Shown here: piece by piece, positions 1 to 58,746 of the stretch
Numbering within the stretch: the stretch's first letter is position 1
Layout of the letters: every line of letters begins with the position of its first letter
The notes under the pieces: generated by a model
The model's input: only the letters and a program-made list of their open reading frames with translations
Databases searched by the model: none
Told to the model about the DNA's origin: nothing
Sequence record: MN882349.1
Reading direction: 5' to 3' (one strand)
Source: Escherichia phage Ec_Makalu_003
DNA: 64,000 bases
Translations under genes and position numbers: made by a program

Positions 1-60
1 TTAATCAAACAGTATTAATATTGTCCATATGTAAACTAAAATTATGTCAGTAATAGATAC

Positions 61-86
61 AAAAAAAGCCGCCCCGAAGGACGGCT
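61..86 (-). terminator. rho-independent terminator after ORF 95..532
   Basis: hairpin agccgccccgaaggacggct (67-86) followed on the minus strand by a U-run (plus A7 at 61-67). Confidence 0.6.
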
Positions 87-94
87 AATGTTAA

Positions 95-532
95 TTATTT
101 GTTGATAACGATCTGATTTCGGCGAATGGTGACATTGCTCTTAGAGATGACCAGATCATCCGGCACTACGTTAGTTTTGTATGGTTGGAAGCGAACAAGC
201 ATCTGATTGCGTTTAGACCCTTCCTTAATCTTGATTTCCATCTGGATATTGTTGCCTACGTGAGCAACCGCAATTTCACCTTTATTCTCATAGACCCACT
301 TGCTGGTAACGTCTCCCGCAAAAGCCTTAATAACTTGCAATGCTTCGTCGTATGCGGTAGAGCTGTGAACTTTCAGAAGGCCAGCCGTAGCAAGACGGGA
401 GCAGGTGATCGCCGGAGATTGCCAAACATCAACATTAATTTGCTCAATCAGAGTAACACCGCCCTGATCAACTGCTTTGAATGCTTCGAACATTGCCTTT
501 TTCATTGCTACGTGGTTTTTACGGAATTTCAT
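95..532 (-). CDS. hypothetical protein, 145 aa (occupies the T4 24.x/rnlB position but is not RnlB-like)
   Basis: long ORF with terminator downstream; no motif recognised. Confidence 0.5.
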   Translation of the reverse strand: MKFRKNHVAMKKAMFEAFKAVDQGGVTLIEQINVDVWQSPAITCSRLATAGLLKVHSSTAYDEALQVIKAFAGDVTSKWVYENKGEIAVAHVGNNIQMEIKIKEGSKRNQMLVRFQPYKTNVVPDDLVISKSNVTIRRNQIVINK

Positions 533-578
533 AATTAGTCACCTCTATTGATTAGTTATTCAGAATATTAATTACAAA

Positions 579-854
579 TCAGGACATTGCCCGTTTGAAT
601 GCGTCCATTATAACAGTGTTATTTGGCTTGTCAACACGTTTTTGAACTTTATTTTTAAATTTTTTGTTTATGTGGTGTTTACGATAAACAACCTTTTCAC
701 GGCTGGCGTAAGCCTCGCGTGCATCTTTTACCATCAACCATGCCTTAGCCGCATCTTGTCCGCTGATCCCGCCAATCTTCTTAGCAATATCAACAAAATT
801 AAGACCGTGATCTTCGCGTAGCATGTAAACCATTAACGCTGTTTTCTTGTCCAT
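579..854 (-). CDS. hypothetical protein, 91 aa, possible HTH
   Basis: ORF co-oriented with neighbours; basic C-terminus. Confidence 0.4.
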   Translation of the reverse strand: MDKKTALMVYMLREDHGLNFVDIAKKIGGISGQDAAKAWLMVKDAREAYASREKVVYRKHHINKKFKNKVQKRVDKPNNTVIMDAFKRAMS

Positions 855-1051
855 TACTTCGCCTCATTGACGATTAACAGGATAGTGATCAGTACCGGAA
901 ACTGGATCATGACAGTACCAATAAACCGGATAAACGCATTTTCTGACTTCCACACATGACATGCGACTAGCTGATAGACCATTGTTGCAACCAAAGCCAG
1001 AAAATACATCTCGATTGGCGTTTCTTTGATCAATCGTACAATCTCATTCAT
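854..1051 (-). CDS. small membrane protein, 65 aa
   Basis: two hydrophobic stretches; stop/start abuts ORF 579..854. Confidence 0.4.
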   Translation of the reverse strand: MNEIVRLIKETPIEMYFLALVATMVYQLVACHVWKSENAFIRFIGTVMIQFPVLITILLIVNEAK

Positions 1052-1210
1052 ACTTCACCTCATACATTCATAAACACAACAACGAATAGGACAGTAACAG
1101 TTATTAAAGCCATTTTCAACCCCATATTCATAATATTTTCTTCGCCTCACGATGACAGTAGCATGTCGATGCGTGCCATTATAGGCATCTAAATCGCTCT
1201 GTCAAGCACA

Positions 1211-1240
1211 AAAACAAAAAAGCCACCCCGAAGGATGGCT
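1211..1240 (-). terminator. rho-independent terminator after hoc
   Basis: hairpin agccaccccgaaggatggct (1221-1240) plus plus-strand A-run 1211-1220. Confidence 0.6.
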
Positions 1241-1251
1241 GATAGATTTCA

Positions 1252-2454
1252 TTAATCACGAATGCGTAGAACTCGCTCTAACGTCTCTCGGTCCAGTTTA
1301 TGTAACTCTTTGGAATGATACATGAAACCATTGCGAGATTCCATGCAAGTGCAATCACTATATTTTTCTTCCGCTGCCGCGATTGTCTCCAGATCTTTGG
1401 CGTACTTGCTGGTTGAATAAACTTCTCGGTTACGCCACTCTAAACCAGCCTCATTGAATTTAACAATCTCGTCAAATACCCACCATCCAATGTAGATAAA
1501 TGAAGTTTTGCGCCACGGGATCGGGTGTACGTAACGAAACATTTTAACAACTTCCATTGAACATTTTCTACTTGTACTTGTTGCAACTTCTACTGTTTCA
1601 TCTTCGATCTGTTGATATAGTTTAGCAACACACCAGAATTTGGCTGTGTCATCGTAAGTAGCACTCTCTTTGAACAGATGACCGTCTGGCATGATAGAAA
1701 ATCCTTCCAGTGCTTCGCCGACCTCACTACCGATTAGAGTCGGTGACATTTGCCCTTCGCGCTGCAAATACCAGTTATATTTGATCGTCAAATTAGGCAT
1801 ACCGCTAGAATCGCCTACAATGTTCTCTGACACAACATAATTAAGTAAGATCTCATTACCTAGTGCCACGGTCTTTGATTCCACCACATCCTGATCTACG
1901 TTCATTGTTGCCAGCATGATTTTAGTCGATGCGCTATCGGCTGAATCTTCCGACTCACCCCACACTTTTACAGTATACACGCCGTTTTTATCTGCTGTAA
2001 ATTTTTGGATCGTAATATCCTGTGTTGTGTCTATAACTTCTTCGCCCTTACTCCAACTATAATGTAGTTCATAGTTGTCTGCTGGAGTCTTCCCACCCGA
2101 AAATTTTACTGTTGCATGTAATTCTACGTTTGTTTGTGATGATACGTAGAATTGCTGCGGTTCGGTGATATTTACGATTAATTCAGCTTCTTCCATGAGG
2201 AAAACTTCAGATTCTACTGATTCCATCGTATCGGTATCTTGTACCGTTACTTTATAGCTACCCGCATTTTCACTTGTTGCGTCTGCTACAGTTAGCGTAG
2301 CTGTGCTATTTTCATGCGGTTGGTCGTCTTTTGTCCATGTATATGTCAAATTGCTGGGTAATGGTTCGTCACCCGCTACAGTCGCCGTTAAGGTGAAACC
2401 ATCTCCAGCAAGAAAACATCTTTTGTTAGATTGTATTGATACTGTGAAAGCCAT
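1252..2454 (-). CDS. hoc: Hoc, highly immunogenic outer capsid protein
   Basis: 400 aa; C-terminal HPIPWRKTSFIYIGWWVFDEI and ESRNGF match the T4 Hoc capsid-binding region as recalled; Ig-like repeats upstream. Confidence 0.85.
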   Translation of the reverse strand: MAFTVSIQSNKRCFLAGDGFTLTATVAGDEPLPSNLTYTWTKDDQPHENSTATLTVADATSENAGSYKVTVQDTDTMESVESEVFLMEEAELIVNITEPQQFYVSSQTNVELHATVKFSGGKTPADNYELHYSWSKGEEVIDTTQDITIQKFTADKNGVYTVKVWGESEDSADSASTKIMLATMNVDQDVVESKTVALGNEILLNYVVSENIVGDSSGMPNLTIKYNWYLQREGQMSPTLIGSEVGEALEGFSIMPDGHLFKESATYDDTAKFWCVAKLYQQIEDETVEVATSTSRKCSMEVVKMFRYVHPIPWRKTSFIYIGWWVFDEIVKFNEAGLEWRNREVYSTSKYAKDLETIAAAEEKYSDCTCMESRNGFMYHSKELHKLDRETLERVLRIRD

Positions 2455-2538
2455 ATAAAGCCACTCCCATAGAAAATCCGAATTTAATTAATTGAAATAG
2501 TTGATTGCTATCAACCAGATAACCATTGCGAGATTCCA
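1326..2538. repeat. 18-bp exact direct repeat aaccattgcgagattcca (1326-1343 and 2521-2538) flanking hoc
   Basis: identical 18-mer inside the hoc 3' coding end and in the hoc upstream region. Confidence 0.7.
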
Positions 2539-2549
2539 ATACATGAGTA

Positions 2550-2714
2550 TTAGAATAGTGATGTAACGAGGCCGAAATAGTATCGATCTCGTCTTGGTAT
2601 TTGTTCTGTTATAAAGTCTGCTGTACTAACAACAATCTTTAACAGAAGTGGATGACCAACGGAGCCATAAACCGGACCTTCTGTTTGATGTAATACATTG
2701 ATTTTGTTAGACAT
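2550..2714 (-). CDS. small hypothetical protein, 54 aa
   Basis: ATG at 2714 preceded by AGAGGA; lies between inh and hoc. Confidence 0.35.
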   Translation of the reverse strand: MSNKINVLHQTEGPVYGSVGHPLLLKIVVSTADFITEQIPRRDRYYFGLVTSLF

Positions 2715-2792
2715 GTAGTATCCTCTTTTAATTGCATAACGGAACTACAATTAAAATTATAACAAATATTTCACAACTTTTATCACCCAAAA

Positions 2793-3509
2793 TTACTTGA
2801 GTGTGTGGAATTGGCTATGTTTAGTCTCTCTCACCTTGACAGACCCATCGCGTTTGATATAATAGATCAGTGACTTGAGGGTGTCGTGTACATACGCGTG
2901 CGGGAAACGCTCTGGATACTTCTTCCAATCTGGAGTATTAACGATCCAGTCGAAAATCCACCACGGGCAGGAGTAGTAACCACGACCGCCACCGATCAAG
3001 CAAATGGTCGGACGGAAACCAGTAAGATCACAAAATGAATCAGTGTCATGTGCAGGAGAACGATGCTCTGCTTCGTCAGAGAAAATGTTTGCTACCGGAG
3101 ATTCCACTTTAACTTCCGGTACAACCACAATTTCAACTGGTACTGTGTGTGGTTTGGCTTCTTCTACAACTGTAACTGGTTCTTCTTTTTGTTCTGGTTC
3201 TTTCATTGCTTCAACCAGAGACGGATCAACTTCGTCGAATACCACTTTATCATCTGCGGTGTCTGCTGCCAGAATAAGATCGTTAATACTGGTTCCTTCT
3301 GCCGGAGTTTCTTCTTCCATTTCGGAAGCCAGTTTAGTTAATTCGGTTTCTACGAACTCGATCATGTTCTCTAGTGATAAAGTCTTTTTGACCTTAATAT
3401 CAAATTGTTTTGCGTAGTCAGCTAATTCTGTTTTAGCTGTTTTCTGTGCTTCTTTGTCGTCGGACGCCGCAATAGCGCGGAGTTCTTCGAAATATTCTTT
3501 ATCAAACAT
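2793..3509 (-). CDS. inh: Inh-like prohead core protein (assigned by position)
   Basis: 238 aa acidic protein in the T4 inh slot between hoc and uvsW; sequence-level identity not verified. Confidence 0.5.
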   Translation of the reverse strand: MFDKEYFEELRAIAASDDKEAQKTAKTELADYAKQFDIKVKKTLSLENMIEFVETELTKLASEMEEETPAEGTSINDLILAADTADDKVVFDEVDPSLVEAMKEPEQKEEPVTVVEEAKPHTVPVEIVVVPEVKVESPVANIFSDEAEHRSPAHDTDSFCDLTGFRPTICLIGGGRGYYSCPWWIFDWIVNTPDWKKYPERFPHAYVHDTLKSLIYYIKRDGSVKVRETKHSQFHTLK

Positions 3510-3535
3510 GCTATTCTCCTGATTGGGGGTGTTTG

Positions 3536-3543
3536 TATAAATA
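3536..3543 (+). promoter_or_regulatory. T4-type late promoter TATAAATA upstream of uvsW
   Basis: exact TATAAATA about 40 nt before the uvsW ATG. Confidence 0.5.
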
Positions 3544-3579
3544 TTTGTATACTGTATTTATTGAGTGAGGCTATTCGCT

Positions 3580-5082
3580 ATGCAAGATATTAAAATTCAC
3601 TTTCTGAACTACTCCCATGTTCAAATTGAATGTAGCGATTCAATTTTATTAGAAATGCGAGATTATTTTAGTTTTGAAGTCGAGGGAGCGCGGTTTCAAA
3701 AAAGATTTAAGTATGGCGGATGGGATGGGCGTATTCGTCTATTAGATTACAATGGAAAGTTGCCAATCGGCCTAACTAAAACCGTTGGCATCTTCGCTAA
3801 AAATATGGGTTATTCTGTTTGGGTAGACCCTCGCTTATTCGAGAAAGAACAGGTTACAGAAGAAGAGATCACAAAATGGTGTAACGACTTAGAATTATAT
3901 TCCGGTGCTAACAGGATCACCCCGCATTGGTATCAATCAAAGGCTGTCTTTGAAGGTATTCATCATAAACGCCGTATGTTAGTTTTGCCTACGTCCGCTG
4001 GTAAATCTGCGATTGCTTGTATGTTGTCTCGCTGGTACTTAGAGAACTACGAAGGGAAAGTGCTGATCATCGTTCCTACCACGTCGCTAGTGCTGCAAAT
4101 GCGTGATGATTTTGTTGATTATCGCCAGTTTCCATATGAAGCAATTCATACTATCATGAGCGGTACTAGTAAACACGTAGGTGATCGCCTGATCGTTGTT
4201 AGTACGTGGCAATCAGCATGTAAACAGCCTCGTGAGTGGTTCCAACAATTCGGGATGGTTATTGTTGACGAATGTCACAAGGCCACGGCTAAAAACCTGC
4301 TAAACATCGTTACTGATATGGATCATTGCCAATTTAAGATCGGTATGACTGGTTCCCCTCGTGACGGGAAAGCTAACATGATGCAGTATGTCGGGCTTTT
4401 CGGTGATATTTCTAAGATCGTGAGTATTGACCGCCTGATGGAAGAAGGGCAGGTGACAAAACTGAAAATTAACTGTCTTTTTCTTCGTTATACCGATGAG
4501 GAATGTAGCGCGGTTAAGGGGAGAGAATATGCGGAAGAGATCAAGTATATTACATCTAACCCACGACGTAATAAGTTTGCTTGCAATTTGGCGCTAAAAC
4601 TCGCTAAGAAGGGCGAAAACGTATTCCTGATGTTCCGCAACACTAAGCACGGAAAACTTATGTATGATGCGTTACAGAAGGTACACGACAAGGTTTATTA
4701 TATTGACGGTGGAGTTAAGACAGAAGAACGTGATGAATTTAAGAAAATGGCGGAAGGTGACACTGGCTTAATCTGTGTTGCGTCTTATGGTGTGTTCTCT
4801 ACTGGTGTTTCCATCAAGAACTTGCATCATGTTATTTTCGGTCATCCAGTGAAGGAATCAACTATCGTTCGTCAGAGTATCGGTCGTGCATTGCGTAAAC
4901 ATGGTTCTAAGGATATTGCTACCGTTTGGGATCTTATCGATCATTTGGCGGTGAAGACAAAGAGCAAGAATGCTAAGAAACAGTTTAGCCACCTTAATTA
5001 TGCTCTTAAACATGCCCTTGAAAGAATAAAAATTTACAACACCGATCGATTCGAATATGTCACGAAAACAATCGAGATTTAA
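3580..5082 (+). CDS. uvsW: UvsW DNA helicase (SF2)
   Basis: near-collinear match to recalled T4 UvsW (FSFEV..YGGWDGRIRLLDYN, LPTSAGKS, VDECH, KLKINCLFLRY); ATG 3580 with SD GAGTGAGG; the track start 3565 is a GTG. Confidence 0.9.
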   Translation: MQDIKIHFLNYSHVQIECSDSILLEMRDYFSFEVEGARFQKRFKYGGWDGRIRLLDYNGKLPIGLTKTVGIFAKNMGYSVWVDPRLFEKEQVTEEEITKWCNDLELYSGANRITPHWYQSKAVFEGIHHKRRMLVLPTSAGKSAIACMLSRWYLENYEGKVLIIVPTTSLVLQMRDDFVDYRQFPYEAIHTIMSGTSKHVGDRLIVVSTWQSACKQPREWFQQFGMVIVDECHKATAKNLLNIVTDMDHCQFKIGMTGSPRDGKANMMQYVGLFGDISKIVSIDRLMEEGQVTKLKINCLFLRYTDEECSAVKGREYAEEIKYITSNPRRNKFACNLALKLAKKGENVFLMFRNTKHGKLMYDALQKVHDKVYYIDGGVKTEERDEFKKMAEGDTGLICVASYGVFSTGVSIKNLHHVIFGHPVKESTIVRQSIGRALRKHGSKDIATVWDLIDHLAVKTKSKNAKKQFSHLNYALKHALERIKIYNTDRFEYVTKTIEI

Positions 5083-5087
5083 TAAAT

Positions 5088-5112
5088 AGGGGCTTTAATG
5101 CCCCTTTATTCT
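5088..5112 (+). terminator. rho-independent terminator after uvsW
   Basis: aggggctttaatgcccct hairpin followed by ttattct. Confidence 0.55.
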
Positions 5113-17019: not shown

Positions 17020-17049
17020 TTGATACTCCTTAGTAGTTCGTTTCGGTAT

Positions 17050-17084
17050 GGGTGTATTATGATATACACCCTCTGTTATGTCAA
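17050..17084 (-). promoter_or_regulatory. early promoter with stem-loop (PeSL-like)
   Basis: minus strand reads TTGACA, then palindrome GGGTGTAT..ATACACCC around CATAAT, then conserved leader with AGGAG. Confidence 0.6.
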
Positions 17085-17090
17085 CAACTT

Positions 17091-17270
17091 TTAGAACATT
17101 TTTGAAATTAATTCTGCTTTGATTTCGCAGAGAACATCTAAAGATTTCTCGTCACCCGCTTTTGCTGCTTCTGCTTGCATTTTTGAAATGGCTTCAATGT
17201 CAGTGCAATTATAAGCCGCTTGAACTTTAGCGATTGCGATGATTGCCGATTCGATGGTTAAGTGTTTCAT
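17091..17270 (-). CDS. hypothetical protein, 59 aa
   Basis: ATG at 17270 preceded by AGGAGAATCAAAC; downstream of the PeSL at 17303. Confidence 0.4.
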   Translation of the reverse strand: MKHLTIESAIIAIAKVQAAYNCTDIEAISKMQAEAAKAGDEKSLDVLCEIKAELISKMF

Positions 17271-17302
17271 GTTTGATTCTCCTTTCGTTTCGGTATGTGT
17301 GC

Positions 17303-17331
17303 AGTATAGGGGATCGCCGATCCCCTGTCAA
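17303..17331 (-). promoter_or_regulatory. early promoter with stem-loop (PeSL)
   Basis: minus strand: TTGACA, 17-bp perfect palindrome GGGGATCGGCGATCCCC as the spacer, TATACT. Confidence 0.65.
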
Positions 17332-17338
17332 CAACTTT

Positions 17339-17857
17339 TTAGTTATTTTTTAATTGCTCATCTTGCAATAATGCAATCACATGCTGGCGATGTTCTTCCG
17401 ATTGAGGAACACCGAAAAAGTTTGTTTTGTAGAAATACTCTAATCGGTCTTCTCGTGTGCTCTCTTCCATCATGATCGCGGGTAGTCCAAGATTTCGGAA
17501 ACGTCGCTTTTCTGCTGGCGTAAAATCACTGTAATACAACATAGAATCATCATTACCAGCAATGCTAAACTCATCCTTCATAAAGGAGAATATTGCGTTT
17601 AAACGCTGTTTACCGTCCACGATTTCGATCTCATAGCGAGAGCCATCATCAATCTTAGCCATTGCGATAGCACCAACCGGAAAATCATTAATCAGGTTTT
17701 CGATAAACATACGTTTGTTTTCGGTGTCCCATACCAAAGGACGCTGATAATCTGGGTTCATGTTGATATAGCCATCTTCTAACCACGCCTCATAAACAGA
17801 GATGACAAAGTTTTTAGTATTGGTATAGTAACGGCGTTTAGGCGTTAAACGGTTCAT
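17339..17857 (-). CDS. DUF262 / ParB-like (DGQQR-type) domain protein
   Basis: motifs DYQRPLVWD and VDGKQRL; ATG at 17857 with AGGAGA inside the upstream gene end (track start 17893 is a TTG). Confidence 0.6.
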   Translation of the reverse strand: MNRLTPKRRYYTNTKNFVISVYEAWLEDGYINMNPDYQRPLVWDTENKRMFIENLINDFPVGAIAMAKIDDGSRYEIEIVDGKQRLNAIFSFMKDEFSIAGNDDSMLYYSDFTPAEKRRFRNLGLPAIMMEESTREDRLEYFYKTNFFGVPQSEEHRQHVIALLQDEQLKNN

Positions 17858-17858
17858 G

Positions 17859-18191
17859 TTATAGTCTCCTGAATGGATCATCACGTAAATCAATATCTTT
17901 TAAGAACTCATCCCATGAATGGCGGATAATGTTCTTAATTCTCCAGATAAGCGCAGGGATTGAACGCTCTCCCATCTGGAAGTAAGGATCATATGATCCA
18001 TATGCCCAATATGCTACTACAATTCCACAATCGGCGCAATAATATTCTATTTCACTTGCTGGCGACCAAAGTCCATCAATATGATCACGGATCTTGCTTT
18101 CGATGTTATGGCTATGGCAATCAGGGCAACGGATGCAATGACCTTGTTTATCGTAATTTGACGTTAGCGAATACTTAAACAATCTCATCAT
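17859..18191 (-). CDS. zinc-ribbon protein, 110 aa
   Basis: CIRCPDCHSH...YYCADCG; coupled to both neighbours. Confidence 0.5.
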   Translation of the reverse strand: MMRLFKYSLTSNYDKQGHCIRCPDCHSHNIESKIRDHIDGLWSPASEIEYYCADCGIVVAYWAYGSYDPYFQMGERSIPALIWRIKNIIRHSWDEFLKDIDLRDDPFRRL

Positions 18192-18904
18192 AGATCCTTA
18201 TTGGCTTCAAATACTGCCTTTGCGAATCCTCGCGGGGTAAGTGACCTGATAGTCTTTGTTCTGGTTCCTTTCCCGCCTAGCTTAGAATGCTGTTTACTGT
18301 ACCCTTTATTAATCTGCAACGGTTTCTTTTCTGGCATTATAAAGCCTTGTCCGGTCCATAAGCAAGTCTTTTTCGGGTACATATCACGGGCGGCAATATA
18401 CTCAGGAAACGTAGGATGCTTATCATCTTCCGGCAAATAACCGCCATATTCCCACGGATGGAACATGTAATCAGGCTTACGCCACATGCTAGAGATAACG
18501 CTTACAGGATTCTCTATCATGTAGGGAACTCCTAGCCATTCACCCAAATAAGCGGTTATTTTAGCTGCCCTTACATCATGAACTTGAATTAATGGTCCTT
18601 GTTCTCGTTTCTTTCGTTCAAAGTGCGCAGCGCCACTAACAGCTAAATTGGTGCATGGTGGGAATGCAAAGATAATATCCGGTTTCCCCCATTCAAGGTC
18701 CATTGCTCTTTCCAGCCAATTTAAATCAATCCATGTGTTTACATATGTAATGTTTGGATGTTCAAATCTGGTATTATATTTTTTGTATGTACCGTGGTCG
18801 CCATCGTCAGCATTAAAGCAGATCACCTTATGACCTGCTTTAGCCCATTCTAACCCCATTATCCCCGATCCGTCAAAGTTGCAGAATATTAATTTTTGTT
18901 TCAT
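18188..18904 (-). CDS. minimal C5-methyltransferase-fold protein
   Basis: motif I-like FCNFDGSGIMG, motif IV-like FAFPPCTNLAVSG, motif VI-like YMIENP; only 238 aa with no obvious target-recognition domain. Confidence 0.55.
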   Translation of the reverse strand: MKQKLIFCNFDGSGIMGLEWAKAGHKVICFNADDGDHGTYKKYNTRFEHPNITYVNTWIDLNWLERAMDLEWGKPDIIFAFPPCTNLAVSGAAHFERKKREQGPLIQVHDVRAAKITAYLGEWLGVPYMIENPVSVISSMWRKPDYMFHPWEYGGYLPEDDKHPTFPEYIAARDMYPKKTCLWTGQGFIMPEKKPLQINKGYSKQHSKLGGKGTRTKTIRSLTPRGFAKAVFEANKDL

Positions 18905-19146
18905 ATACGCCCCTTTAACCCAACACAGATTTTAGAAGGTTCTTTGCCGTGCCACATTAAGTAAATTCCGTTAATGCGTCCTTGTTTTGTATATGATTCT
19001 TTTCTGATCTTCTTATAGTGTCGTGCTTCCTCAGCCGATTGTTTAGAATGTCGATCATAAAGGAAGAGGAACAAAGGCCAACCATTAGCGGCCTTAATGC
19101 AGTTATTCAAAAATTCCTTATTTCGTTTAATTAATTTTCTTTTCAC
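18901..19146 (-). CDS. hypothetical basic protein, 81 aa
   Basis: ATGA-type overlap with both neighbours. Confidence 0.45.
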   Translation of the reverse strand: MKRKLIKRNKEFLNNCIKAANGWPLFLFLYDRHSKQSAEEARHYKKIRKESYTKQGRINGIYLMWHGKEPSKICVGLKGRI

Positions 19147-19394
19147 GCTGCCCCCATTGGTTTGATAGTAACAGAATCTAAAAGACCTTTGTTAGCCAGT
19201 TCGCGGCAAGTTTTCAGATCCGCAACTTCCCAGCCAGCCGCAATAAGGTTATCAATGAGGCTGTTAGCAACTTCTTCGCTCATGAAAGAGCACTGTTTGC
19301 CGATGGTGTAGCGTACACGCTGTAATTTCAGTTTACGGAAGCCTTTAACGTTCAGGTCTTTAGCGATTTTCTTTGCGGTTTCGATGTTAGCCAT
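19143..19394 (-). CDS. hypothetical protein, 83 aa
   Basis: first gene after the PeSL at 19435. Confidence 0.5.
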   Translation of the reverse strand: MANIETAKKIAKDLNVKGFRKLKLQRVRYTIGKQCSFMSEEVANSLIDNLIAAGWEVADLKTCRELANKGLLDSVTIKPMGAA

Positions 19395-19434
19395 TGTTTG
19401 ATTCTCCTAAGTGGTATCTCGTCTTGATGGTTGT

Positions 19435-19463
19435 ATTGTAGGGGAGTTATCCTCCCCTGTCAA
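19435..19463 (-). promoter_or_regulatory. early promoter with stem-loop (PeSL)
   Basis: TTGACA, spacer GGGGAGGATAACTCCCC, TACAAT. Confidence 0.6.
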
Positions 19464-19477
19464 CACTTTTTATAAAA

Positions 19478-19645
19478 TTATTTGTTAATTTCTGGTGCGT
19501 TGCTAGGATAGTAACCTTCTTTAACTCCGAGGTATTTTGCAACCATCCCTACAATCTTCTGTGCTACTACAATGTCAAATTTCAGATAATCTTCGCCGTG
19601 GGTTTCAATGATATATGCTTCACATGCTGCTTTAGTCTCGAACAT
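19478..19645 (-). CDS. small conserved protein, 55 aa (copy 1; paralogue at 22760..22927)
   Basis: MFETKAACEAYII...GVKEGYYPSNAPEINK; second copy differs by about ten amino acids, with additional synonymous differences. Confidence 0.55.
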   Translation of the reverse strand: MFETKAACEAYIIETHGEDYLKFDIVVAQKIVGMVAKYLGVKEGYYPSNAPEINK

Positions 19646-19678
19646 TTTGATTCTCCTATTTCGTTTCGGTATGTGTGT

Positions 19679-19707
19679 ATTATAGGGGATCTCCCGATCC
19701 CCGTCAA
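19679..19707 (-). promoter_or_regulatory. early promoter with stem-loop (PeSL)
   Basis: TTGACG, spacer GGGATCGGGAGATCCCC, TATAAT. Confidence 0.6.
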
Positions 19708-19721
19708 CAACTTTTTTAAAA

Positions 19722-20003
19722 TTATTCGTGATTAGTTTCGATATTGTGCATTTTGCACCAGTTCAGCCAATCGCCAAGATCTTGATAGTTGATGCTTTTA
19801 TCTGCTGCCATCGTTTTTGTCTTGATACCCATATGTGCGTTATGAGTAAGCATTTTTACAGTGAACTCAATTTTATCGCCTTTAGCTTTAACATCAACCA
19901 GTTTGGTCCACTGGCTACCAGCACCGCGAATGTTCATACCAACGATGTTTCCGATGTATGCTTCTTTGTTGTTCAGGATTTCGGTTGCTTTGATGAATTT
20001 CAT
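19722..20003 (-). CDS. hypothetical protein, 93 aa
   Basis: ORF after a PeSL-family promoter. Confidence 0.5.
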   Translation of the reverse strand: MKFIKATEILNNKEAYIGNIVGMNIRGAGSQWTKLVDVKAKGDKIEFTVKMLTHNAHMGIKTKTMAADKSINYQDLGDWLNWCKMHNIETNHE

Positions 20004-20036
20004 TTTTGATTCTCCAGTTCGTTTCGGTATGGGTGT

Positions 20037-20065
20037 ATTATGCTATGTTCTTACTTTGGTGTCAA
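20037..20065 (-). promoter_or_regulatory. early promoter, PeSL family with degenerate stem
   Basis: TTGACA, 17 nt, CATAAT, conserved leader. Confidence 0.5.
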
Positions 20066-20073
20066 CAACTTTT

Positions 20074-20343
20074 TTAGATATTTTCAGAAATAAATTTTAA
20101 AACTTGACGTAAATGTTTCTCATCTTTGATAGTCGCCGGAAGTTCTTCTTTTACTTCCTGTGCAAGATAGATATTTCCGTTCCAAGTGAAAGACCCGTCT
20201 TCGTTTACGCGATAGCTGAACATCCATTCGCAATCATTTTCGATTTCATATACACACAGAAGGGTGTAATCTTCAAAGCTATTGATTTCAAGGTCGAAGC
20301 CGTGGCGTTTTGCAAAGTTGGTAGTGGTTTTAGTCAGTGCCAT
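20074..20343 (-). CDS. hypothetical protein, 89 aa
   Basis: ORF after a PeSL-family promoter. Confidence 0.5.
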   Translation of the reverse strand: MALTKTTTNFAKRHGFDLEINSFEDYTLLCVYEIENDCEWMFSYRVNEDGSFTWNGNIYLAQEVKEELPATIKDEKHLRQVLKFISENI

Positions 20344-20383
20344 TGTTTGATTCTCCTAAGTGGTATCTCGTTTCGATGGGTGT

Positions 20384-20412
20384 ATTATGCTATAGGCGTG
20401 ATCAGGTGTCAA
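20384..20412 (-). promoter_or_regulatory. early promoter, PeSL family
   Basis: TTGACA, 17 nt containing TGATCA, CATAAT. Confidence 0.5.
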
Positions 20413-20469
20413 TGCCTTTTTTAAAATTTTATGCAATAAAAAAGCCGACACTAAGGTCGGCTAATAAAA

Positions 20470-20778
20470 TCATTTAGACAAATAATCATTCAGTGCAATC
20501 CGGTCGGCATGTTCCGGCGTTACATCAATCGCAATCACTTTAACGCGTGCTTTCTTGCGACCTGGGTTTTCTCGTAACCAGTGCTCATGACCGTGAACAT
20601 TTTTATACTGCGATGCTTCTTCGAAGGTACGGATCGGACCAGGGTAATCAGCGTAAAGGATCTCTAGGTCATCGGTGATGTAAAAATATACGTTGTAATT
20701 ACTGTTCTCTAGCTTAAGCAGAGACTTTCGGAACATTGGGAGATTTTCGCGGGTAAATTCAAAAGTAATATCTTTCAT
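20470..20778 (-). CDS. HxH-HW family protein A, 102 aa
   Basis: ATG at 20778 with GAGGA; motifs YFYITDD, HGHEHWL, VIAIDV. Confidence 0.5.
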   Translation of the reverse strand: MKDITFEFTRENLPMFRKSLLKLENSNYNVYFYITDDLEILYADYPGPIRTFEEASQYKNVHGHEHWLRENPGRKKARVKVIAIDVTPEHADRIALNDYLSK

Positions 20779-20827
20779 AGTATTATCCTCAATAGTTGGA
20801 TGAAAAGGGGGCTTAACGCCCCATATA

Positions 20828-21115
20828 TTAAAACAGTCCTTCCTGTACACCGTAGTAGAGTTCGTCGCTGATAATTTCATTAATGCGACGGTGTGCATAT
20901 TCCTGATTTGCGAAGTTGTCAGCAAGTTCTACTTTAGTTTCACCGTCATGAGTCCATTTAGTGATAACTTTACCATCTGCAAATTTGAAGTTGAACTCTT
21001 TAGCTACTGCATCGCGTACCAGACGTGCGAACTTGTTGTTACGGATTGCATTATCGGTTTCGTGTGCAGCGTGAGCAAATTTGTTAACTTTCAGAGTGAT
21101 AGTGATGTATGCCAT
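20828..21115 (-). CDS. hypothetical protein, 95 aa
   Basis: ORF followed by hairpin ggggcttaacgcccc and a T-run. Confidence 0.5.
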   Translation of the reverse strand: MAYITITLKVNKFAHAAHETDNAIRNNKFARLVRDAVAKEFNFKFADGKVITKWTHDGETKVELADNFANQEYAHRRINEIISDELYYGVQEGLF

Positions 21116-21161
21116 AATTTGATTCTCCTAGTTAGAAAGTGTATCTCGTTTCGATGGGTGT

Positions 21162-21190
21162 ATTATGCTATACACCCGATCTTATGTCAA
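21162..21190 (-). promoter_or_regulatory. early promoter with stem-loop (PeSL)
   Basis: TTGACA, then GGGTGTAT/ATACACCC inverted repeat flanking CATAAT. Confidence 0.55.
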
Positions 21191-21197
21191 CACTTTT

Positions 21198-21476
21198 TTA
21201 TAAAATAATTTTTTGATATTTTTCTATGATGTTTGTGTAATCCACATCAACCGCTATCACCGTTGCTTCGAATCCACCGTTTAGCCAATGGCTATGGTCA
21301 TGATCGTGAAAGAAACCAAGACCAGTACGAAGACCTTCTTTATATTCGGCGCGTACATTTAGATCATCATCGATAAACAGATAAAACCATGAATTTTTAC
21401 TAGGATTGATGATACAACCTTTCAGATTAGGGAGAATATCACGACTAAGAATAAACTTATCACCTACTTTGAACAT
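21198..21476 (-). CDS. HxH-HW family protein B, 92 aa
   Basis: ATG at 21476 with GTGAGGA; motifs FYLFIDDD, HDHDHSHWL, VIAVDV. Confidence 0.5.
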   Translation of the reverse strand: MFKVGDKFILSRDILPNLKGCIINPSKNSWFYLFIDDDLNVRAEYKEGLRTGLGFFHDHDHSHWLNGGFEATVIAVDVDYTNIIEKYQKIIL

Positions 21477-21480
21477 AATA

Positions 21481-21801
21481 TTAGTCCTCACTTATAAGGT
21501 CAAACCAATTGTTTTTCGCATAATGCTTAATGCGTGCTTGATCTGCTTCCGCTGGTGATAGATTCCATGCAACCACTACAACTTCTGACGCGTCGTCATC
21601 CGTTTCTGATACCCAATGATTGTGATTCATACAGTTATTTGCGATCGAGTGAGCAAATGATTTCATCACTGGAGACGTATAATCATAGTAACGGATTTTC
21701 AGATTTTCATCAACATACAAGTAGATCGTATAAGGTTTATATTCAGTAACCAGTAACAGACAGTTACGCAATTCTGGGAAAATCTTTTTAGTTAATTTCA
21801 T
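21481..21801 (-). CDS. HxH-HW family protein C, 106 aa
   Basis: ATG at 21801 with GAGGA; motifs IYLYVDEN, NHNHWV, VVVVAWN. Confidence 0.45.
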   Translation of the reverse strand: MKLTKKIFPELRNCLLLVTEYKPYTIYLYVDENLKIRYYDYTSPVMKSFAHSIANNCMNHNHWVSETDDDASEVVVVAWNLSPAEADQARIKHYAKNNWFDLISED

Positions 21802-21802
21802 T

Positions 21803-22021
21803 TTATAATCCTCGGTCGCGGCTATAGTACACGGTACGCCATACAATTTCATGTTTCGTGTCGCTCCAGCACACGATCTCATTTACTCTTAAATCTTTGT
21901 TATCAACAAAAGATGAACATTGTGACGCTTCTTTCATCATTTTATCTGCTGTTTTCTCATCAAATACAGCACAGATTTCTTTATACACTCGATAATCTTT
22001 GAATTGACTCTGGATACCCAT
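21803..22021 (-). CDS. small protein, about 72 aa (paralogue of 21981..22238)
   Basis: QFKDYRVYKEICAVFDEKTADKMMKEASQCSSF vs KFKDYKAYQQILRVYDAEFAEKMMEDASKCPSF. Confidence 0.45.
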   Translation of the reverse strand: MGIQSQFKDYRVYKEICAVFDEKTADKMMKEASQCSSFVDNKDLRVNEIVCWSDTKHEIVWRTVYYSRDRGL

Positions 22022-22238
22022 AATTAACACCATTCCAACCAATTGTTTTTGAGAAAACGTTTATCCACTGTTGAGTGTAGCATGTTTCTTTCCATGATAC
22101 AATACGAGTAGAATAATGGTTTTTGTTTCCAGAAAAGGACGGGCATTTTGATGCATCTTCCATCATCTTTTCGGCGAACTCCGCGTCATATACCCGCAGG
22201 ATCTGTTGATATGCTTTATAATCTTTAAATTTGCTCAT
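21981..22238 (-). CDS. small protein, 85 aa (paralogue of 21803..22021)
   Basis: tandem paralogue overlapping the next gene in another frame. Confidence 0.45.
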   Translation of the reverse strand: MSKFKDYKAYQQILRVYDAEFAEKMMEDASKCPSFSGNKNHYSTRIVSWKETCYTQQWINVFSKTIGWNGVNYGYPESIQRLSSV

Positions 22239-22503
22239 AATTGTTAACTACCTTATCAGCTTCTTTTATTGTTTTTACATCAACTGCGATAATCCGTAAA
22301 GGTTCGTCGAAGGTCCACCAGTGGTCATGAATATCAGCTTGTGATTTATCACCAAAGGAATCACGAATATCATTTTTACATTTATAGCTAATATGGCCTT
22401 CATAGTCAACATAAAGGTAATTATCGAAAATCGGAGTTTTTAAGATCATACCGAAAAATCTTTCTTTGTGTGTCTTATCAAGTGTTGCAGTAATTCGCAT
22501 CAT
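22225..22503 (-). CDS. HxH-HW family protein D, 92 aa
   Basis: motifs YLYVDYEG, IHDHWW, IIAVDV. Confidence 0.5.
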   Translation of the reverse strand: MMRITATLDKTHKERFFGMILKTPIFDNYLYVDYEGHISYKCKNDIRDSFGDKSQADIHDHWWTFDEPLRIIAVDVKTIKEADKVVNNYEQI

Positions 22504-22515
22504 AATATATTCCTC

Positions 22516-22695
22516 TTAGAAAGGGATGGTCATTTCTTGAGCTTGTACATTCTCGTTAGGATTAAACTTCATCCAACCGATATTGTCTACCAGCATATGT
22601 ACATTTTTATCATATCCTACGTGAGTAGTCAACACTAAATGTGCTTTACCTTCAACGATGATTTCCATGTACTTCTGAACTTCGATAGCTTTCAT
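22516..22695 (-). CDS. hypothetical protein, 59 aa
   Basis: ATG at 22695 after the conserved leader GGAGAATCAAA. Confidence 0.35.
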   Translation of the reverse strand: MKAIEVQKYMEIIVEGKAHLVLTTHVGYDKNVHMLVDNIGWMKFNPNENVQAQEMTIPF

Positions 22696-22721
22696 TTTGA
22701 TTCTCCGTTTGTTGTCTTGAT

Positions 22722-22756
22722 GGGAGTATCTTACTACTCCCTTTAATCATTGTCAA
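22722..22756 (-). promoter_or_regulatory. early promoter with stem-loop (PeSL)
   Basis: TTGACA followed by palindrome GGGAGTAGTAAGATACTCCC. Confidence 0.55.
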
Positions 22757-22759
22757 CTA

Positions 22760-22927
22760 TTATTTGTTAATTTCTGGTGCGTTGCTCGGATAGTAACCTT
22801 CTTTAACACCCAGATATTTTGCAACCATTCCGGTGATCTTCTGTGCTACTACGATATCGAATTTCAGGTAGTCTTCACCGTGGTTTGCTACAATGTATGC
22901 TTCGCATTCTGCTTTAGTCTGGAACAT
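22760..22927 (-). CDS. small conserved protein, 55 aa (copy 2; paralogue of 19478..19645)
   Basis: MFQTKAECEAYIV...GVKEGYYPSNAPEINK. Confidence 0.55.
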   Translation of the reverse strand: MFQTKAECEAYIVANHGEDYLKFDIVVAQKITGMVAKYLGVKEGYYPSNAPEINK

Positions 22928-22961
22928 TTTTGATTCTCCTATATCTCGTTGGTATGTGTGC

Positions 22962-22990
22962 ATTATAGGGGATCACCGATCCCCTGTCAA
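22962..22990 (-). promoter_or_regulatory. early promoter with stem-loop (PeSL)
   Basis: TTGACA, spacer GGGGATCGGTGATCCCC, TATAAT. Confidence 0.65.
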
Positions 22991-22995
22991 CAACT

Positions 22996-23289
22996 TTATA
23001 ATGCTTTATACGCGTATTTCATAAATTTGTCTGCCACTTCATTGGCATGTTCAGATTCTACGCCTGATTCGAGAACAATAGCTAGGTCGGTTTCGTCATT
23101 CCCGCCGTACCAATGATTTGATGTTCGATTTTTTTCAATTGGAAATTGGTCACTTTTATCTGTGCGACAAAATACATCTAAATGCTCGTCGATGTAAAAG
23201 ATCCAATCTTCATAAAGAATAACGGTATTAGCAAGATTTTTATTGCCTTCAACGAAAGGTTCCGCGACAAATAGCTTAGTTTGTTCCAT
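22996..23289 (-). CDS. HxH-HW family-like protein F, 97 aa
   Basis: ATG at 23289 with GAGGA; FYIDEHLDV...SNHWYGG; weakest family member. Confidence 0.4.
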   Translation of the reverse strand: MEQTKLFVAEPFVEGNKNLANTVILYEDWIFYIDEHLDVFCRTDKSDQFPIEKNRTSNHWYGGNDETDLAIVLESGVESEHANEVADKFMKYAYKAL

Positions 23290-23305
23290 AGTAATTTCCT
23301 CAAAA

Positions 23306-23497
23306 TTATACAGTTTCGTAAACTTCCCAATGTTCAGCGCCAACACGCTTAACGAAAAGGTTTTCTTTGATGTTATTCATAAACGTCTGGATGGATTTAA
23401 TGCGGTTTGAAGGTTTCCATTCTTCGTTGGCATTGCGTCGATACATCATAACATTACCAGTTCGCTTATATTCAGCAACCATTTTAAGACCACACAT
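23306..23497 (-). CDS. hypothetical protein, 63 aa
   Basis: ORF between family members. Confidence 0.4.
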   Translation of the reverse strand: MCGLKMVAEYKRTGNVMMYRRNANEEWKPSNRIKSIQTFMNNIKENLFVKRVGAEHWEVYETV

Positions 23498-23554
23498 AAT
23501 ATTATCCTCAATTTGTGGGAGAGTATTACCCCTCCCAATGATTGTTATGTTATA

Positions 23555-23875
23555 TCACACAAAATGGCGTGTCAATGCTTCTTTTGCGGTTCCGCTAAGA
23601 CTTTCAATCTCGCCTGGCATAACATCAACCGCCAGAACTTCTACAACATCTTCGGACCCTAACCAGTGAGTATGGCCTTTGTAGAACTTGATAACCAGAC
23701 CACCTTCCTCGTCCCATTTAACGCTATCGCTAGCCCACCACACATCACCGTCGATAAAGTTGATGTAAAGCACACTACGCCACATTGAATTAATTACTTT
23801 CAATACTGCGCCTTTCATCTCTTCCACGGTATGGTCTTCCATTTTGAAGACCTCACCTACCTGAACTTTTGCCAT
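23555..23875 (-). CDS. HxH-HW family protein E, 106 aa
   Basis: motifs LYINFIDGD, KGHTHWL, VLAVDV. Confidence 0.5.
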   Translation of the reverse strand: MAKVQVGEVFKMEDHTVEEMKGAVLKVINSMWRSVLYINFIDGDVWWASDSVKWDEEGGLVIKFYKGHTHWLGSEDVVEVLAVDVMPGEIESLSGTAKEALTRHFV

Positions 23876-23892
23876 TTAGTCACCTCTCTTTA

Positions 23893-24072
23893 TTACATAA
23901 CAATCACGCCAGCCGTTGAAAGTTGATGTTTCAACTGAGCATTTTCTGCTACTGTCAAATCAATGATTTCTTGTGACGCTGCAATCATATAACCATTGGT
24001 GATATTGTTTTGCATCAGTTCAATGGTTTCTTCGTTGTAGCGGATTTTAGCGATGATTTCGTTGAAGTTCAT
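23893..24072 (-). CDS. hypothetical protein, 59 aa
   Basis: ATG at 24072 downstream of the PeSL at 24107. Confidence 0.4.
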   Translation of the reverse strand: MNFNEIIAKIRYNEETIELMQNNITNGYMIAASQEIIDLTVAENAQLKHQLSTAGVIVM

Positions 24073-24106
24073 AATTGATTCTCCTAGTTCGTTTCGGTAT
24101 GTGTGC

Positions 24107-24135
24107 AGTATAGGGGATCGCCGATCCCCTGTCAA
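24107..24135 (-). promoter_or_regulatory. early promoter with stem-loop (PeSL)
   Basis: identical to the 17303-17331 element: TTGACA, GGGGATCGGCGATCCCC, TATACT. Confidence 0.65.
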
Positions 24136-24148
24136 CAACTTTTTTGAA

Positions 24149-24625
24149 TTATTTTTCTTGATGCTCGCGCTCGTACTTTTCGAAATAAAATTCTACTGGC
24201 TGATCGTGGATTGAAAGCAAGCCAAAGCGTTTAGCCGCACGTAATCCCATGTTACGTTGAATGTACTTCTGGAAGTTCTCGCGTATACACTTACGCCAGT
24301 ATTCTAAGCCCATACAGCTTTTGTAAAGATTGCATTGCACACAAGCCGGATTCATGTTGTCAAGTATATCGTGCTCCGGTTTATGCATTCCTACAACCTT
24401 ATACTTCCACGATCCATCATCATTACGGGCAATTCGTCCATTTTCATCATAGACTACTTTTGAGCGTCGCAATACTGGTTTGATGTGGTCTGCGTGCCAG
24501 CGATCCCCTAGTTCCTCGCCACAATAGGCACAACGCCCACCGTATTTCATTTTCAGGATCTGGCGTTGCTCTTTCTTTGACAATTTTTTAGGTTTAGGGG
24601 CTTTCGCCCCTTCATTATCACACAT
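24149..24625 (-). CDS. HNH endonuclease
   Basis: CAYCGEELGDRWHADHIKPV and NMNPACVQCN; start overlaps the DNA ligase stop by 8 nt. Confidence 0.7.
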   Translation of the reverse strand: MCDNEGAKAPKPKKLSKKEQRQILKMKYGGRCAYCGEELGDRWHADHIKPVLRRSKVVYDENGRIARNDDGSWKYKVVGMHKPEHDILDNMNPACVQCNLYKSCMGLEYWRKCIRENFQKYIQRNMGLRAAKRFGLLSIHDQPVEFYFEKYEREHQEK

Positions 24626-31930: not shown

Positions 31931-31965
31931 CTTGATACTCCTTAGTAAGTTAGTTTCGTTTCGAT

Positions 31966-32001
31966 GGGGGGTATATTACTACTCCCGTGATATGCTGTCA
32001 A
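31966..32001 (-). promoter_or_regulatory. early promoter with stem-loop (PeSL)
   Basis: TTGACA followed by imperfect palindrome GGGAGTAGTAATATACCCCC. Confidence 0.55.
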
Positions 32002-32009
32002 TTGCTTTT

Positions 32010-32159
32010 TTATGCAACCGCAAACATCAACATTTGAACATTCTTGGCTGTCTGGCTTTCAAAGTTCTGACATTCTTTGATAATGTCCTCTACTTTCTCG
32101 CCAGAGATCTCCGCGTAAGTTTCGATTGCCATTTTCAGTACCGCGTCAAAGTTGTTCAT
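32010..32159 (-). CDS. hypothetical protein, 49 aa
   Basis: ATG at 32159 after a conserved leader. Confidence 0.3.
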   Translation of the reverse strand: MNNFDAVLKMAIETYAEISGEKVEDIIKECQNFESQTAKNVQMLMFAVA

Positions 32160-32191
32160 TTGGTTCTCCTTAAAGTGTATTTCGTTTCGAT

Positions 32192-32226
32192 GGGGGTATA
32201 TTACTACCCCCGTTATTCAGTGTCAA
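32192..32226 (-). promoter_or_regulatory. early promoter with stem-loop (PeSL)
   Basis: TTGACA followed by perfect palindrome GGGGGTAGTAATATACCCCC. Confidence 0.6.
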
Positions 32227-32445
32227 CTACTTTTTAATGACAAGTTCGAATTTTGCTACCTTGCGTCCTCGTTTATTGAAAGCAACCCACGGACGGTTTT
32301 CAATGTAGAACAATTCTTCACCAATAATGAATATTGGCTGATTGTAAAGGCGACCCATCAGGTCACGTTGGCGAATAGTAGTAGATTCGTATACTTCGCC
32401 TACTACAAAGTGTTTGCTGATAGAGTCGGTGCAAGTAAATTTCAT
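32227..32445 (-). CDS. small protein, 72 aa (paralogue of 59488..59694)
   Basis: shared C-terminal NKRGRKVAKFELVIKK vs TKRNGDPVAKFEIIK. Confidence 0.5.
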   Translation of the reverse strand: MKFTCTDSISKHFVVGEVYESTTIRQRDLMGRLYNQPIFIIGEELFYIENRPWVAFNKRGRKVAKFELVIKK

Positions 32446-32472
32446 TTTGATTCTCCTTTGTTTCGTTTCGAT

Positions 32473-32507
32473 GGGAGTATCTTACAACTCCCAATATTCA
32501 GTGTCAA
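32473..32507 (-). promoter_or_regulatory. early promoter with stem-loop (PeSL)
   Basis: TTGACA followed by palindrome GGGAGTTGTAAGATACTCCC. Confidence 0.6.
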
Positions 32508-32514
32508 CTGCTTT

Positions 32515-32733
32515 TTACTTGTTGTATTCATTCCACCAACGAGTAAGTTTATCGATTATTTTTGTGTTTCTATCCAATTTCTCCCACCGTTTACGCGGGT
32601 TTATAAGCCGGAATAGGTAGGGTGTACTTGTTAAGTGAACTCGGTCAAAATAATGGTTGATAAGCTGGCATTCAATTCTCAATTTCATCTTTTTACGATG
32701 AAAATATGCAATCACTTGTTCTTCTGTTTCCAT
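32515..32733 (-). CDS. hypothetical protein, 72 aa
   Basis: ORF after a PeSL-family promoter. Confidence 0.45.
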   Translation of the reverse strand: METEEQVIAYFHRKKMKLRIECQLINHYFDRVHLTSTPYLFRLINPRKRWEKLDRNTKIIDKLTRWWNEYNK

Positions 32734-32757
32734 ATGTTCCTCCGTTTCGATGCGTGC

Positions 32758-32786
32758 ATTATGCTATACCCCGGTCCGATTGTCAA
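32758..32786 (-). promoter_or_regulatory. early promoter, PeSL family with degenerate stem
   Basis: TTGACA, 17 nt, CATAAT. Confidence 0.5.
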
Positions 32787-32833
32787 CACCCAATAACAAA
32801 AAAGTCGCCACTATGGGCGACTTAGGTTAAACA

Positions 32834-57892: not shown

Positions 57893-57920
57893 AATATATT
57901 CCTCAATGTCTTGTCTTGAT

Positions 57921-57955
57921 GGGAGTATCTTACTACTCCCTTAATCCGGTGTCAA
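57921..57955 (-). promoter_or_regulatory. early promoter with stem-loop (PeSL)
   Basis: TTGACA followed by palindrome GGGAGTAGTAAGATACTCCC, same stem as the 22722 element. Confidence 0.6.
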
Positions 57956-57962
57956 CTACTTT

Positions 57963-58118
57963 TTAAATTTCTTCTACAGTAAAGTCTTCAATGTTGTTGT
58001 GCTCGGAGAACGTTGCCAGACCAGCATTCCATGCATCATCCTCAGAGAAGAATACACCGTAACGTTCATATCCTTTAGCGCCTTCAAATTTAATCATTAA
58101 TTTGTGAGTATGTTTCAT
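57963..58118 (-). CDS. hypothetical protein, 51 aa
   Basis: ATG at 58118 after the conserved leader. Confidence 0.35.
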   Translation of the reverse strand: MKHTHKLMIKFEGAKGYERYGVFFSEDDAWNAGLATFSEHNNIEDFTVEEI

Positions 58119-58149
58119 TTTGATTCTCCATCGTTGTCTTGATGAGTTT

Positions 58150-58178
58150 AGTATAGGGGATCACCGATCCCCTGTCAA
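58150..58178 (-). promoter_or_regulatory. early promoter with stem-loop (PeSL)
   Basis: TTGACA, spacer GGGGATCGGTGATCCCC, TATACT. Confidence 0.65.
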
Positions 58179-58187
58179 CAACTATTT

Positions 58188-58400
58188 TTAATTTTTACCC
58201 ACGCGTAAATTAATGCGCATTTTCTGCATAGCCATGATCTGGTTTACTGCTTCTTCTTTACGCTCTTTCGTGATAATGTGACCAGATTCCGCAAACGCTC
58301 CCGCAACTTCTTCTACGATCTCGCGAACTTGAGAACGTCCAAAGATGCGATTTCCTTCGTAGCTCATAAACTCGGTTACTACTTGCTCAATAGATTTCAT
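58188..58400 (-). CDS. hypothetical protein, 70 aa
   Basis: ORF after a PeSL. Confidence 0.45.
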   Translation of the reverse strand: MKSIEQVVTEFMSYEGNRIFGRSQVREIVEEVAGAFAESGHIITKERKEEAVNQIMAMQKMRINLRVGKN

Positions 58401-58427
58401 GTGATTCTCCTTCTTTCGTTTCGGTGT

Positions 58428-58462: not shown

Positions 58463-58469
58463 CCAGTTT

Positions 58470-58712: not shown

Positions 58713-58746
58713 TTTTATTTCCTCCAGTTCGTTTCGGTATGTGAGT

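Follow-up and report, generated by a model that had tools for sequence, protein, structure and literature searches.

The window, the whole 64,000-nucleotide stretch analysed here (Escherichia phage Ec_Makalu_003, MN882349.1), comes from an RB49-like T-even phage (Krischvirus), and over bases 1-5100 it shares 98% identity with Escherichia phage Ec_Makalu_002 and 96% with RB49. Read along the minus strand, the locus runs from inh, which encodes the prohead protease inhibitor (2793-3509), through a 338-nt spacer to hoc (1252-2454) and an intrinsic terminator (1221-1240) that is also annotated in Ec_Makalu_002. The resident hoc is a 400-aa ORF. Residues 1-304 of its product match the RB49 Hoc crystal structure (PDB 3SHS, E = 1e-191), and residues 296-384 align to residues 281-367 of T4 Hoc, in the capsid-binding domain (PDB 5VF3 chain Z, E = 2e-15). 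Pfam places Ig_2, PKD, Ig_3, V-set, and I-set above cut-off, so the N-terminal string of Ig-like domains is present, and the protein carries at its C-terminus a capsid-binding domain with the conserved ESRNG loop. Compared with the window, hoc of vB_EcoM_G37-3 (locus L025, 1251-2461) has lost 1, 2, and 1 nt at three sites, each time with a frameshift, and its annotation is split into two fragments, which reflects either sequencing error or real decay of hoc; the uvsW gene of this phage is flagged only as “similar to helicase”.

Several other features of the window were recorded. Two perfect sigma-70 consensus promoters (TTGACA-16-TATAAT, 12/12) are present, one at 2836-2863 on the plus strand, within the 3′ end of inh, to which it is antisense, and directed at uvsW, and one at 1178-1205 on the minus strand, directly past the hoc terminator and ahead of small ORFs at 854-1150. 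The C-terminus of Inh (the last ~60 residues, 2793-2980, minus strand; GYYSCPWWIFDWIVNTPDWKKY...YYIKRDGSVKV) loosely resembles the Hoc capsid-binding domain (GWWVFDEI...LEW...ESRNG), and an hhalign comparison with a profile of eight Hoc C-terminal domains gave E = 0.0015 with a probability of only 16.5%. If this likeness were real, inh, the large hoc paralog described below, and hoc would make up a three-gene array with one common domain. Elsewhere in the window, a family of repeats of ~50-70 nt (GTTTCGGTATGGGTGTATTAT...GTCAACAACTTTT) occurs in at least 13 copies at 17037-24160, 31947-32800, and 57898-59764, some holding GC-rich palindromes such as GGGGATCGCCGATCCCC. On the minus strand, these repeats look like early-promoter regions (TTGAC...TATAAT-like), with hairpins nearby, between small early genes.

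The starting point of this analysis was an 18-mer, AACCATTGCGAGATTCCA, of which the original prediction had reported exact copies inside the 3′ end of hoc and just upstream of this gene. The report holds: the window contains two exact copies, at 1326-1343 and 2521-2538 (plus-strand coordinates), and no third copy at up to three mismatches, and at least two matches were found in 0 of 100 shuffles. The bases flanking the two copies are unlike, which sets the length of the repeat at exactly 18 nt. Read on the minus strand, both copies give (M/L)ESRNG(F/Y). Copy 1 encodes M-ESRNG-F, the capsid-binding β3-β4 loop of the resident Hoc, and copy 2 encodes L-ESRNG-Y within the spacer between inh and hoc. 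The second copy had been placed about 65 bp upstream of the hoc start in a start-less frame; we measured 66 nt to the hoc ATG and a 60-codon open frame that lacks an ATG.

The protein reading gives the 18-mer its meaning. Glu355-Ser356-Arg357-Asn358-Gly359 of T4 Hoc form a highly conserved loop between β-strands 3 and 4 of the C-terminal domain, this loop makes contact at the centre of the gp23* hexamer, and binding is weakened when it is mutated (Fokine et al. 2023, PMC10385173). Since ESRNG is the conserved Hoc loop, both copies of the 18-mer encode the hallmark of the Hoc capsid-binding domain. The similarity also extends past the repeat: the ESRNG frame of the spacer is identical to Hoc residues 349-387 at 15 of 39 residues (E = 1e-8 at the protein level), and outside the 18-mer the DNA of the spacer and of the hoc 3′ end match at 47 of 99 positions. 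The repeat is thus genuine and no product of chance, a patch of identity within a homologous segment that has otherwise diverged. As a tblastn query, the RB49 version of the ESRNG frame matched annotated Hoc genes of many T-even genera at their very C-termini. The 18-mer itself is no general motif, which the original prediction had named as the finding that would speak against it: in a scan of IMG/VR it was found only in Krischvirus-like contigs, apart from one chance match (locus L011), which we rejected as an unrelated contig without a Hoc-like frame.

The decisive match to the spacer came from Shigella phage SSG23, a divergent Krischvirus, in which the interval between inh and hoc holds an intact CDS of 2,541 bp (846 aa). 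The N-terminus of its product (MSDKINILHQTMGPVYASVGHELVLKLVVSTADF...) corresponds to a 54-aa ORF of the window (2550-2714, MSNKINVLHQTEGPVYGSVGHPLLLKIVVSTADF...), and its C-terminus (...TKYPDEIETIAASLHHYSNTHVLESRNGYLVDGTQLF, followed by the stop) corresponds to the ESRNG frame of the spacer. An intact paralog of 846-847 aa lies between inh and hoc in six GenBank phages (SSG23, SFHK24, Brandy, JK32, UPWr_E1, and G2248) and at the same position in one 150-kb IMG/VR contig (L014), so that the suggested search for relatives with two hoc-like genes was positive. The annotation of JK32 already names both genes Hoc. In SSG23, UPWr_E1, Brandy, JK32, and G2248, the intact paralog has multiple Ig-like domains (Pfam Ig_3, Ig_2, and I-set), and an ungapped alignment pairs its C-terminal domain with T4 Hoc 292-366 (E = 3.7e-12). 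Tyr293, His295, Arg300, Trp310, Asp313, and ESRNG are conserved (T4 numbering), with Trp309 replaced by Tyr. Judged by its sequence, the 846-aa paralog is thus a genuine Hoc-family protein. Its C-terminal domain is 49-53% identical to that of Krischvirus Hoc, the closest within the sample compared, a level consistent with an old duplication inside the lineage.

Both ends of this large gene are retained in the window. The 5′ stump (2604-2714, minus strand) comprises the ATG at 2714 and about 37 codons (MSNKINVLHQTEGPVYGSVGHPLLLKIVVSTADF-ITE), with which the annotated “hypothetical protein” of 54 aa begins. Counted from the ATG, 98 of its first 102 nt agree with the start of the UPWr_E1 gene, and the stump ends ...TTT-ATA-ACA-GAA (2604). 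The ribosome-binding site of the former gene, AAGAGGA (2719-2725, minus strand), is retained as well and is annotated as such in Ec_Makalu_002. BLASTP of the 54-aa ORF against the resident Hoc gave nothing significant, so that its identity is recognisable only from the intact SSG23 gene. The 3′ stump (2492-2603, minus strand) consists of the last 37 codons of the paralog, lacks an ATG, and is out of frame with the 5′ stump. It starts CAAATACC... (2603), corresponds to the final 112 nt of the intact gene, diverges by 8.9-9.8% from the intact 3′ ends of Brandy, SSG23, and JK32, and in translation matches the end of the paralog (...KYPDEIETIAASLHHYSNTHVLESRNGYLVDGTQLF, then the stop). The stump ends at the former stop codon, TAA, which is now CAA (2492-2494, minus strand). 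Searches that used the fragments alone were uninformative: neither stump ORF had a Pfam match, and a PDB sequence search with the 60-aa translated stump found no match even at E = 10, the query being too short. The spacer (2492-2714) contains no complete capsid-binding domain (~96 residues, T4 281-376) in one ATG-started frame; its ESRNG frame keeps only the last 37 of the ~96 residues, without the part carrying Tyr293, His295, Arg300, the Trp-Trp pair, and Asp313. Measured against the T4 and RB49 Hoc structures (PDB 3SHS and 5VF3 chain Z), the resident gene is an RB49-type Hoc, whereas copy 2 sits in no functional Hoc gene but in a run of 37 codons without a start.

The homologies to the left and right parts of the intact genes meet at 2604/2603 on the minus strand (...ATA-ACA-GAA/C-AAA-TAC-C...). 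The junction can be fixed at this position because the other window-type genomes read ...ATAGCAGAA/CAAATACCC, as expected from the left part of UPWr_E1 and the right part of the intact genes. The closest intact relative is a mosaic, with UPWr_E1 nearest on the left and SSG23, Brandy, and JK32 nearest on the right. The net loss is 2,318-2,321 nt (~2.3 kb), and since this is not a multiple of three, the two stumps lie in different frames. Little or no microhomology is seen at this junction in the relatives available for comparison. We also considered that the deletion had been in frame, at a GATTTTA microhomology, with a 1-nt frameshift arising afterwards, and dropped this reading on the sequences of Phi1, MIZ4, ECD7, and G37-3, which point to one out-of-frame breakpoint and a separate 9-nt (KDF) difference. 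Downstream of the 3′ stump, the former spacer between the paralog and hoc is itself reduced (2469-2491, minus strand). In SSG23 and UPWr_E1, a GC-rich UUCG hairpin with a U-tract follows the intact gene (-17 to -20 kcal/mol); in the window it has been reduced to AAATTCGGATTTT, with only AAATTCGGATTTTCT left of this spacer, and a terminator search found no terminator at 2469-2491. Effects of this loss on transcription are something we can only infer, since no canonical T4 late promoter (TATAAATA) lies on the minus strand near inh or hoc, the only one there being that of uvsW at 3536-3543.

We surveyed 58 Krischvirus records and sampled the junction and the substitutions in 13 genomes with a stump. 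An intact paralog is present in 6 of the records, a stump of the window type in 11, and a shorter stump of the RB49 type in 41. The primary junction is the same in all 13 sampled stumps, and this common junction is consistent with one ancestral deletion. Genomes of the RB49 type lack a further 75 bp (window 2609-2683) between 7-nt direct repeats, AACAGAA. They are the derived form, because the missing stretch has its homologue in codons 12-36 of the intact gene. This second loss is a clear example of deletion mediated by short repeats, and it incidentally makes an ATG-started ORF of 65 aa, annotated as RB49p168.2. The annotation of the spacer varies between records, from a 54-aa ORF to a 29-aa ORF, ORFs of 63 to 76 aa in the other frame, or none.

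Taken together, we consider it very likely that the spacer between inh and hoc is what the collapse of a second, much larger Hoc-family gene has left, and that the two 18-mers are the same conserved motif in two paralogous genes of this family, one of them now a pseudogene stump. The original prediction had read the repeat as the footprint of an ancestral duplication or deletion involving hoc. It was right in that copy 2 is a leftover of a deleted hoc-like gene and that relatives with two hoc genes exist, but the lost gene was a separate 846-aa paralog between inh and hoc and not hoc itself. Nor is the 18-mer the scar, which lies ~70 nt further upstream at 2604/2603; the repeat is the conserved ESRNG motif, and its exactness, discussed below, is a lineage-specific trait and not a trace of the event.

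A direct role for the repeat would require that the 18-mers were crossover sites of a duplication or deletion, or boundaries for the exchange of hoc alleles. The two copies are indeed direct repeats bracketing most of hoc, and T-even phages form deletions between short direct repeats. However, the junction is at 2604/2603 and not at the 18-mer, and the only breakpoint found at a repeat is that of the 75-bp deletion, at the unrelated AACAGAA. Copy 2 is flanked on either side by diverged homologous sequence, making it an island and not a boundary, and the predicted recombinants, with hoc deleted or with a chimeric hoc tail, were found in none of the 58 related records. We regard a role of this kind as highly improbable.

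The exactness of the match deserves separate consideration. The Arg codon of ESRNG is CGT in all seven intact paralogs, which therefore match the hoc sequence, with CGC, at 17 of 18 positions at best; all 13 sampled stumps have CGC, like hoc. Under independent codon choice with the codon usage of the window, resampling gave a run of at least 18 nt in only 0.29% of trials, and in the retained tail the codon is the same at 5 of 5 motif residues as compared with 2 of the 9 identical residues outside the motif. This excess of exact matching leaves some room for a micro gene conversion, in which short-patch recombination copying hoc into the stump created the 18/18 identity or keeps it. If true, the stump would be a reservoir or a recombination partner for the capsid-binding loop of hoc. 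However, the case comes down to a single nucleotide. As the 3′ stump is ~9-10% diverged and the finding was chosen for its exactness, there is nothing remarkable in one T to C transition at the only mismatched position. Any converted tract would be at most 18 nt, as the bases flanking the repeat differ, and the copy in the JSE stump, where Ser has become Tyr (EYRNG), was mutated without correction. Similar islands arise elsewhere: the UPWr_E1 paralog pair has a second identity island of 17 nt at the conserved HPIPWR motif, codons are common to the paralog pair at 42-53% of conserved residues in the first half of the domain, and the unrelated “Hoc I” gene of CGG4-1 independently matches 17 of the 18 nt. 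Two differences separate the 18-mers of paralog and hoc in UPWr_E1, and five separate the two copies in G2248, through synonymous changes in the Ser, Arg, and Asn codons, so the motif is under no constraint at the nucleotide level. We therefore hold conversion to be quite unlikely, and the 18/18 identity is best described as a lineage-specific coincidence for which no special mechanism is needed.

It is also possible that the stump works as a small gene, with either the 5′ ORF (54 aa, or 29 aa in RB49-type genomes) or the 65-aa ORF in the ESRNG frame of RB49-type genomes (RB49p168.2) being translated and having a role, such as in modulating the binding of Hoc or the expression of hoc. All 13 genomes have a Shine-Dalgarno sequence and an ATG for the 5′ ORF, the variants in ECD7 and G37-3 being still Shine-Dalgarno-like. 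The 75-bp deletion is in frame for this ORF, its ratio of nonsynonymous to synonymous substitutions is 6:5, and these ORFs are annotated as CDSs in several records. However, such counts are too small for significance, the tail of the 5′ ORF is an out-of-frame reading of the old gene, and, as noted above, Pfam recognises nothing in either ORF. With low probability, the 5′ ORF may be translated, as junk or as a co-opted peptide. The ESRNG frame fares no better, as it lacks an ATG in window-type genomes and a Shine-Dalgarno sequence in RB49-type genomes, and holds too little of the domain. Across the 13 genomes, it shows a ratio of 8:3, roughly the neutral expectation, and in JSE the motif itself is disrupted; the frame is under no constraint at the protein level. 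In our judgement, the spacer does not keep its copy of ESRNG as a capsid-binding element, and we judge a functional small gene to be unlikely. That the stump is anything but inert, be it as a co-opted peptide of 54 aa here and 29 aa in the RB49 type or as an ESRNG patch kept identical to hoc by short-patch conversion, strikes us as very unlikely.

The remnant of a deleted paralog can be placed in a simple history. The ancestor of the RB49-like phages would have carried inh, a large Hoc paralog of ~846 aa with a string of Ig-like domains and a capsid-binding domain, and hoc. A single internal deletion of ~2.3 kb would then have taken out the gene from codon ~37 up to its last 37 codons and joined the ends out of frame. 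Decay would have followed, with the stop codon changing to CAA and the downstream terminator hairpin being lost, and RB49-type genomes would later have lost the 75 bp between the two AACAGAA repeats. Copy 2 would have survived through its location in the retained 3′ stump, and its resemblance to hoc would reflect the ESRNG motif, the best-conserved part of the capsid-binding domain, which both paralogs write with nearly the same codons. One CGT to CGC change would have turned a match of 17/18 into an exact one in the stump lineage, and the copy in JSE has since mutated. The sequences themselves establish that both stump ends are homologous to the intact gene, where the junction lies, how the states are distributed among relatives, and that the ESRNG frame is free of protein-level constraint; a deletion rather than an insertion, a single event, and a stump without function are what we infer.

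The locus resembles known systems in part. An internal deletion followed by decay is also the pattern of the deletion remnants and pseudogenes known from variable regions of T4-like genomes, and the 75-bp loss at AACAGAA fits it; unlike the short-repeat deletions of these phages, the primary junction has little or no microhomology in the available relatives, and the 18-mer has no connection with either of the two junctions. Two Hoc-like proteins can occur in one phage (PMC10385173). Second or very large Hoc-like proteins are found, each alongside a shorter Hoc, in Serratia phage Muldoon (1,174 aa and 314 aa), Enterobacter phage PG7, and Salmonella phage CGG4-1 (“Hoc I/Hoc II”) (PMC10385173), whereas in the window and 51 other Krischvirus records the second gene has been cut to a stump of ~220 nt. 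We also observed extra “hypothetical” genes beside hoc whose products have an ESRNG-bearing Hoc capsid-binding domain at the C-terminus: VR5_180 of phage VR5 (272 aa; locus L005, 2799-3617), CGG41_168 of phage CGG4-1 (944 aa; locus L004, 780-3614), and IT22_00196 of phage IT22 (122 aa; locus L006, 3252-3620). Several Hoc-tailed proteins per genome seem to be common and under-annotated in the T-even genera.

The Hoc architecture, the ESRNG loop, and the existence of phages with two Hoc proteins are already published (PMC10385173). For the remnant in RB49-like phages, we found no published account in the literature on RB49, hoc pseudogenes, and second hoc genes. What is described here is ordinary gene decay and not a new element, and it reveals no new mechanism. 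The practical gain is in annotation, as the “hypothetical proteins” between inh and hoc in 52 Krischvirus records (e.g., RB49p168.2, phi1p168.1, and Makalu002_170) are best read as decayed fragments of a second hoc and not as genes. From a biological perspective, RB49 Hoc is a structural reference for the family, and its lineage once had a second, far longer Hoc fibre that some relatives still have. The long fibre would compete with Hoc for the same site at the centre of the capsomer. RB49, on the one hand, and SSG23, JK32, and UPWr_E1, on the other, form a natural pairing of one-Hoc and two-Hoc phages in which the part played by the long fibre in adhesion or dispersal may be studied.
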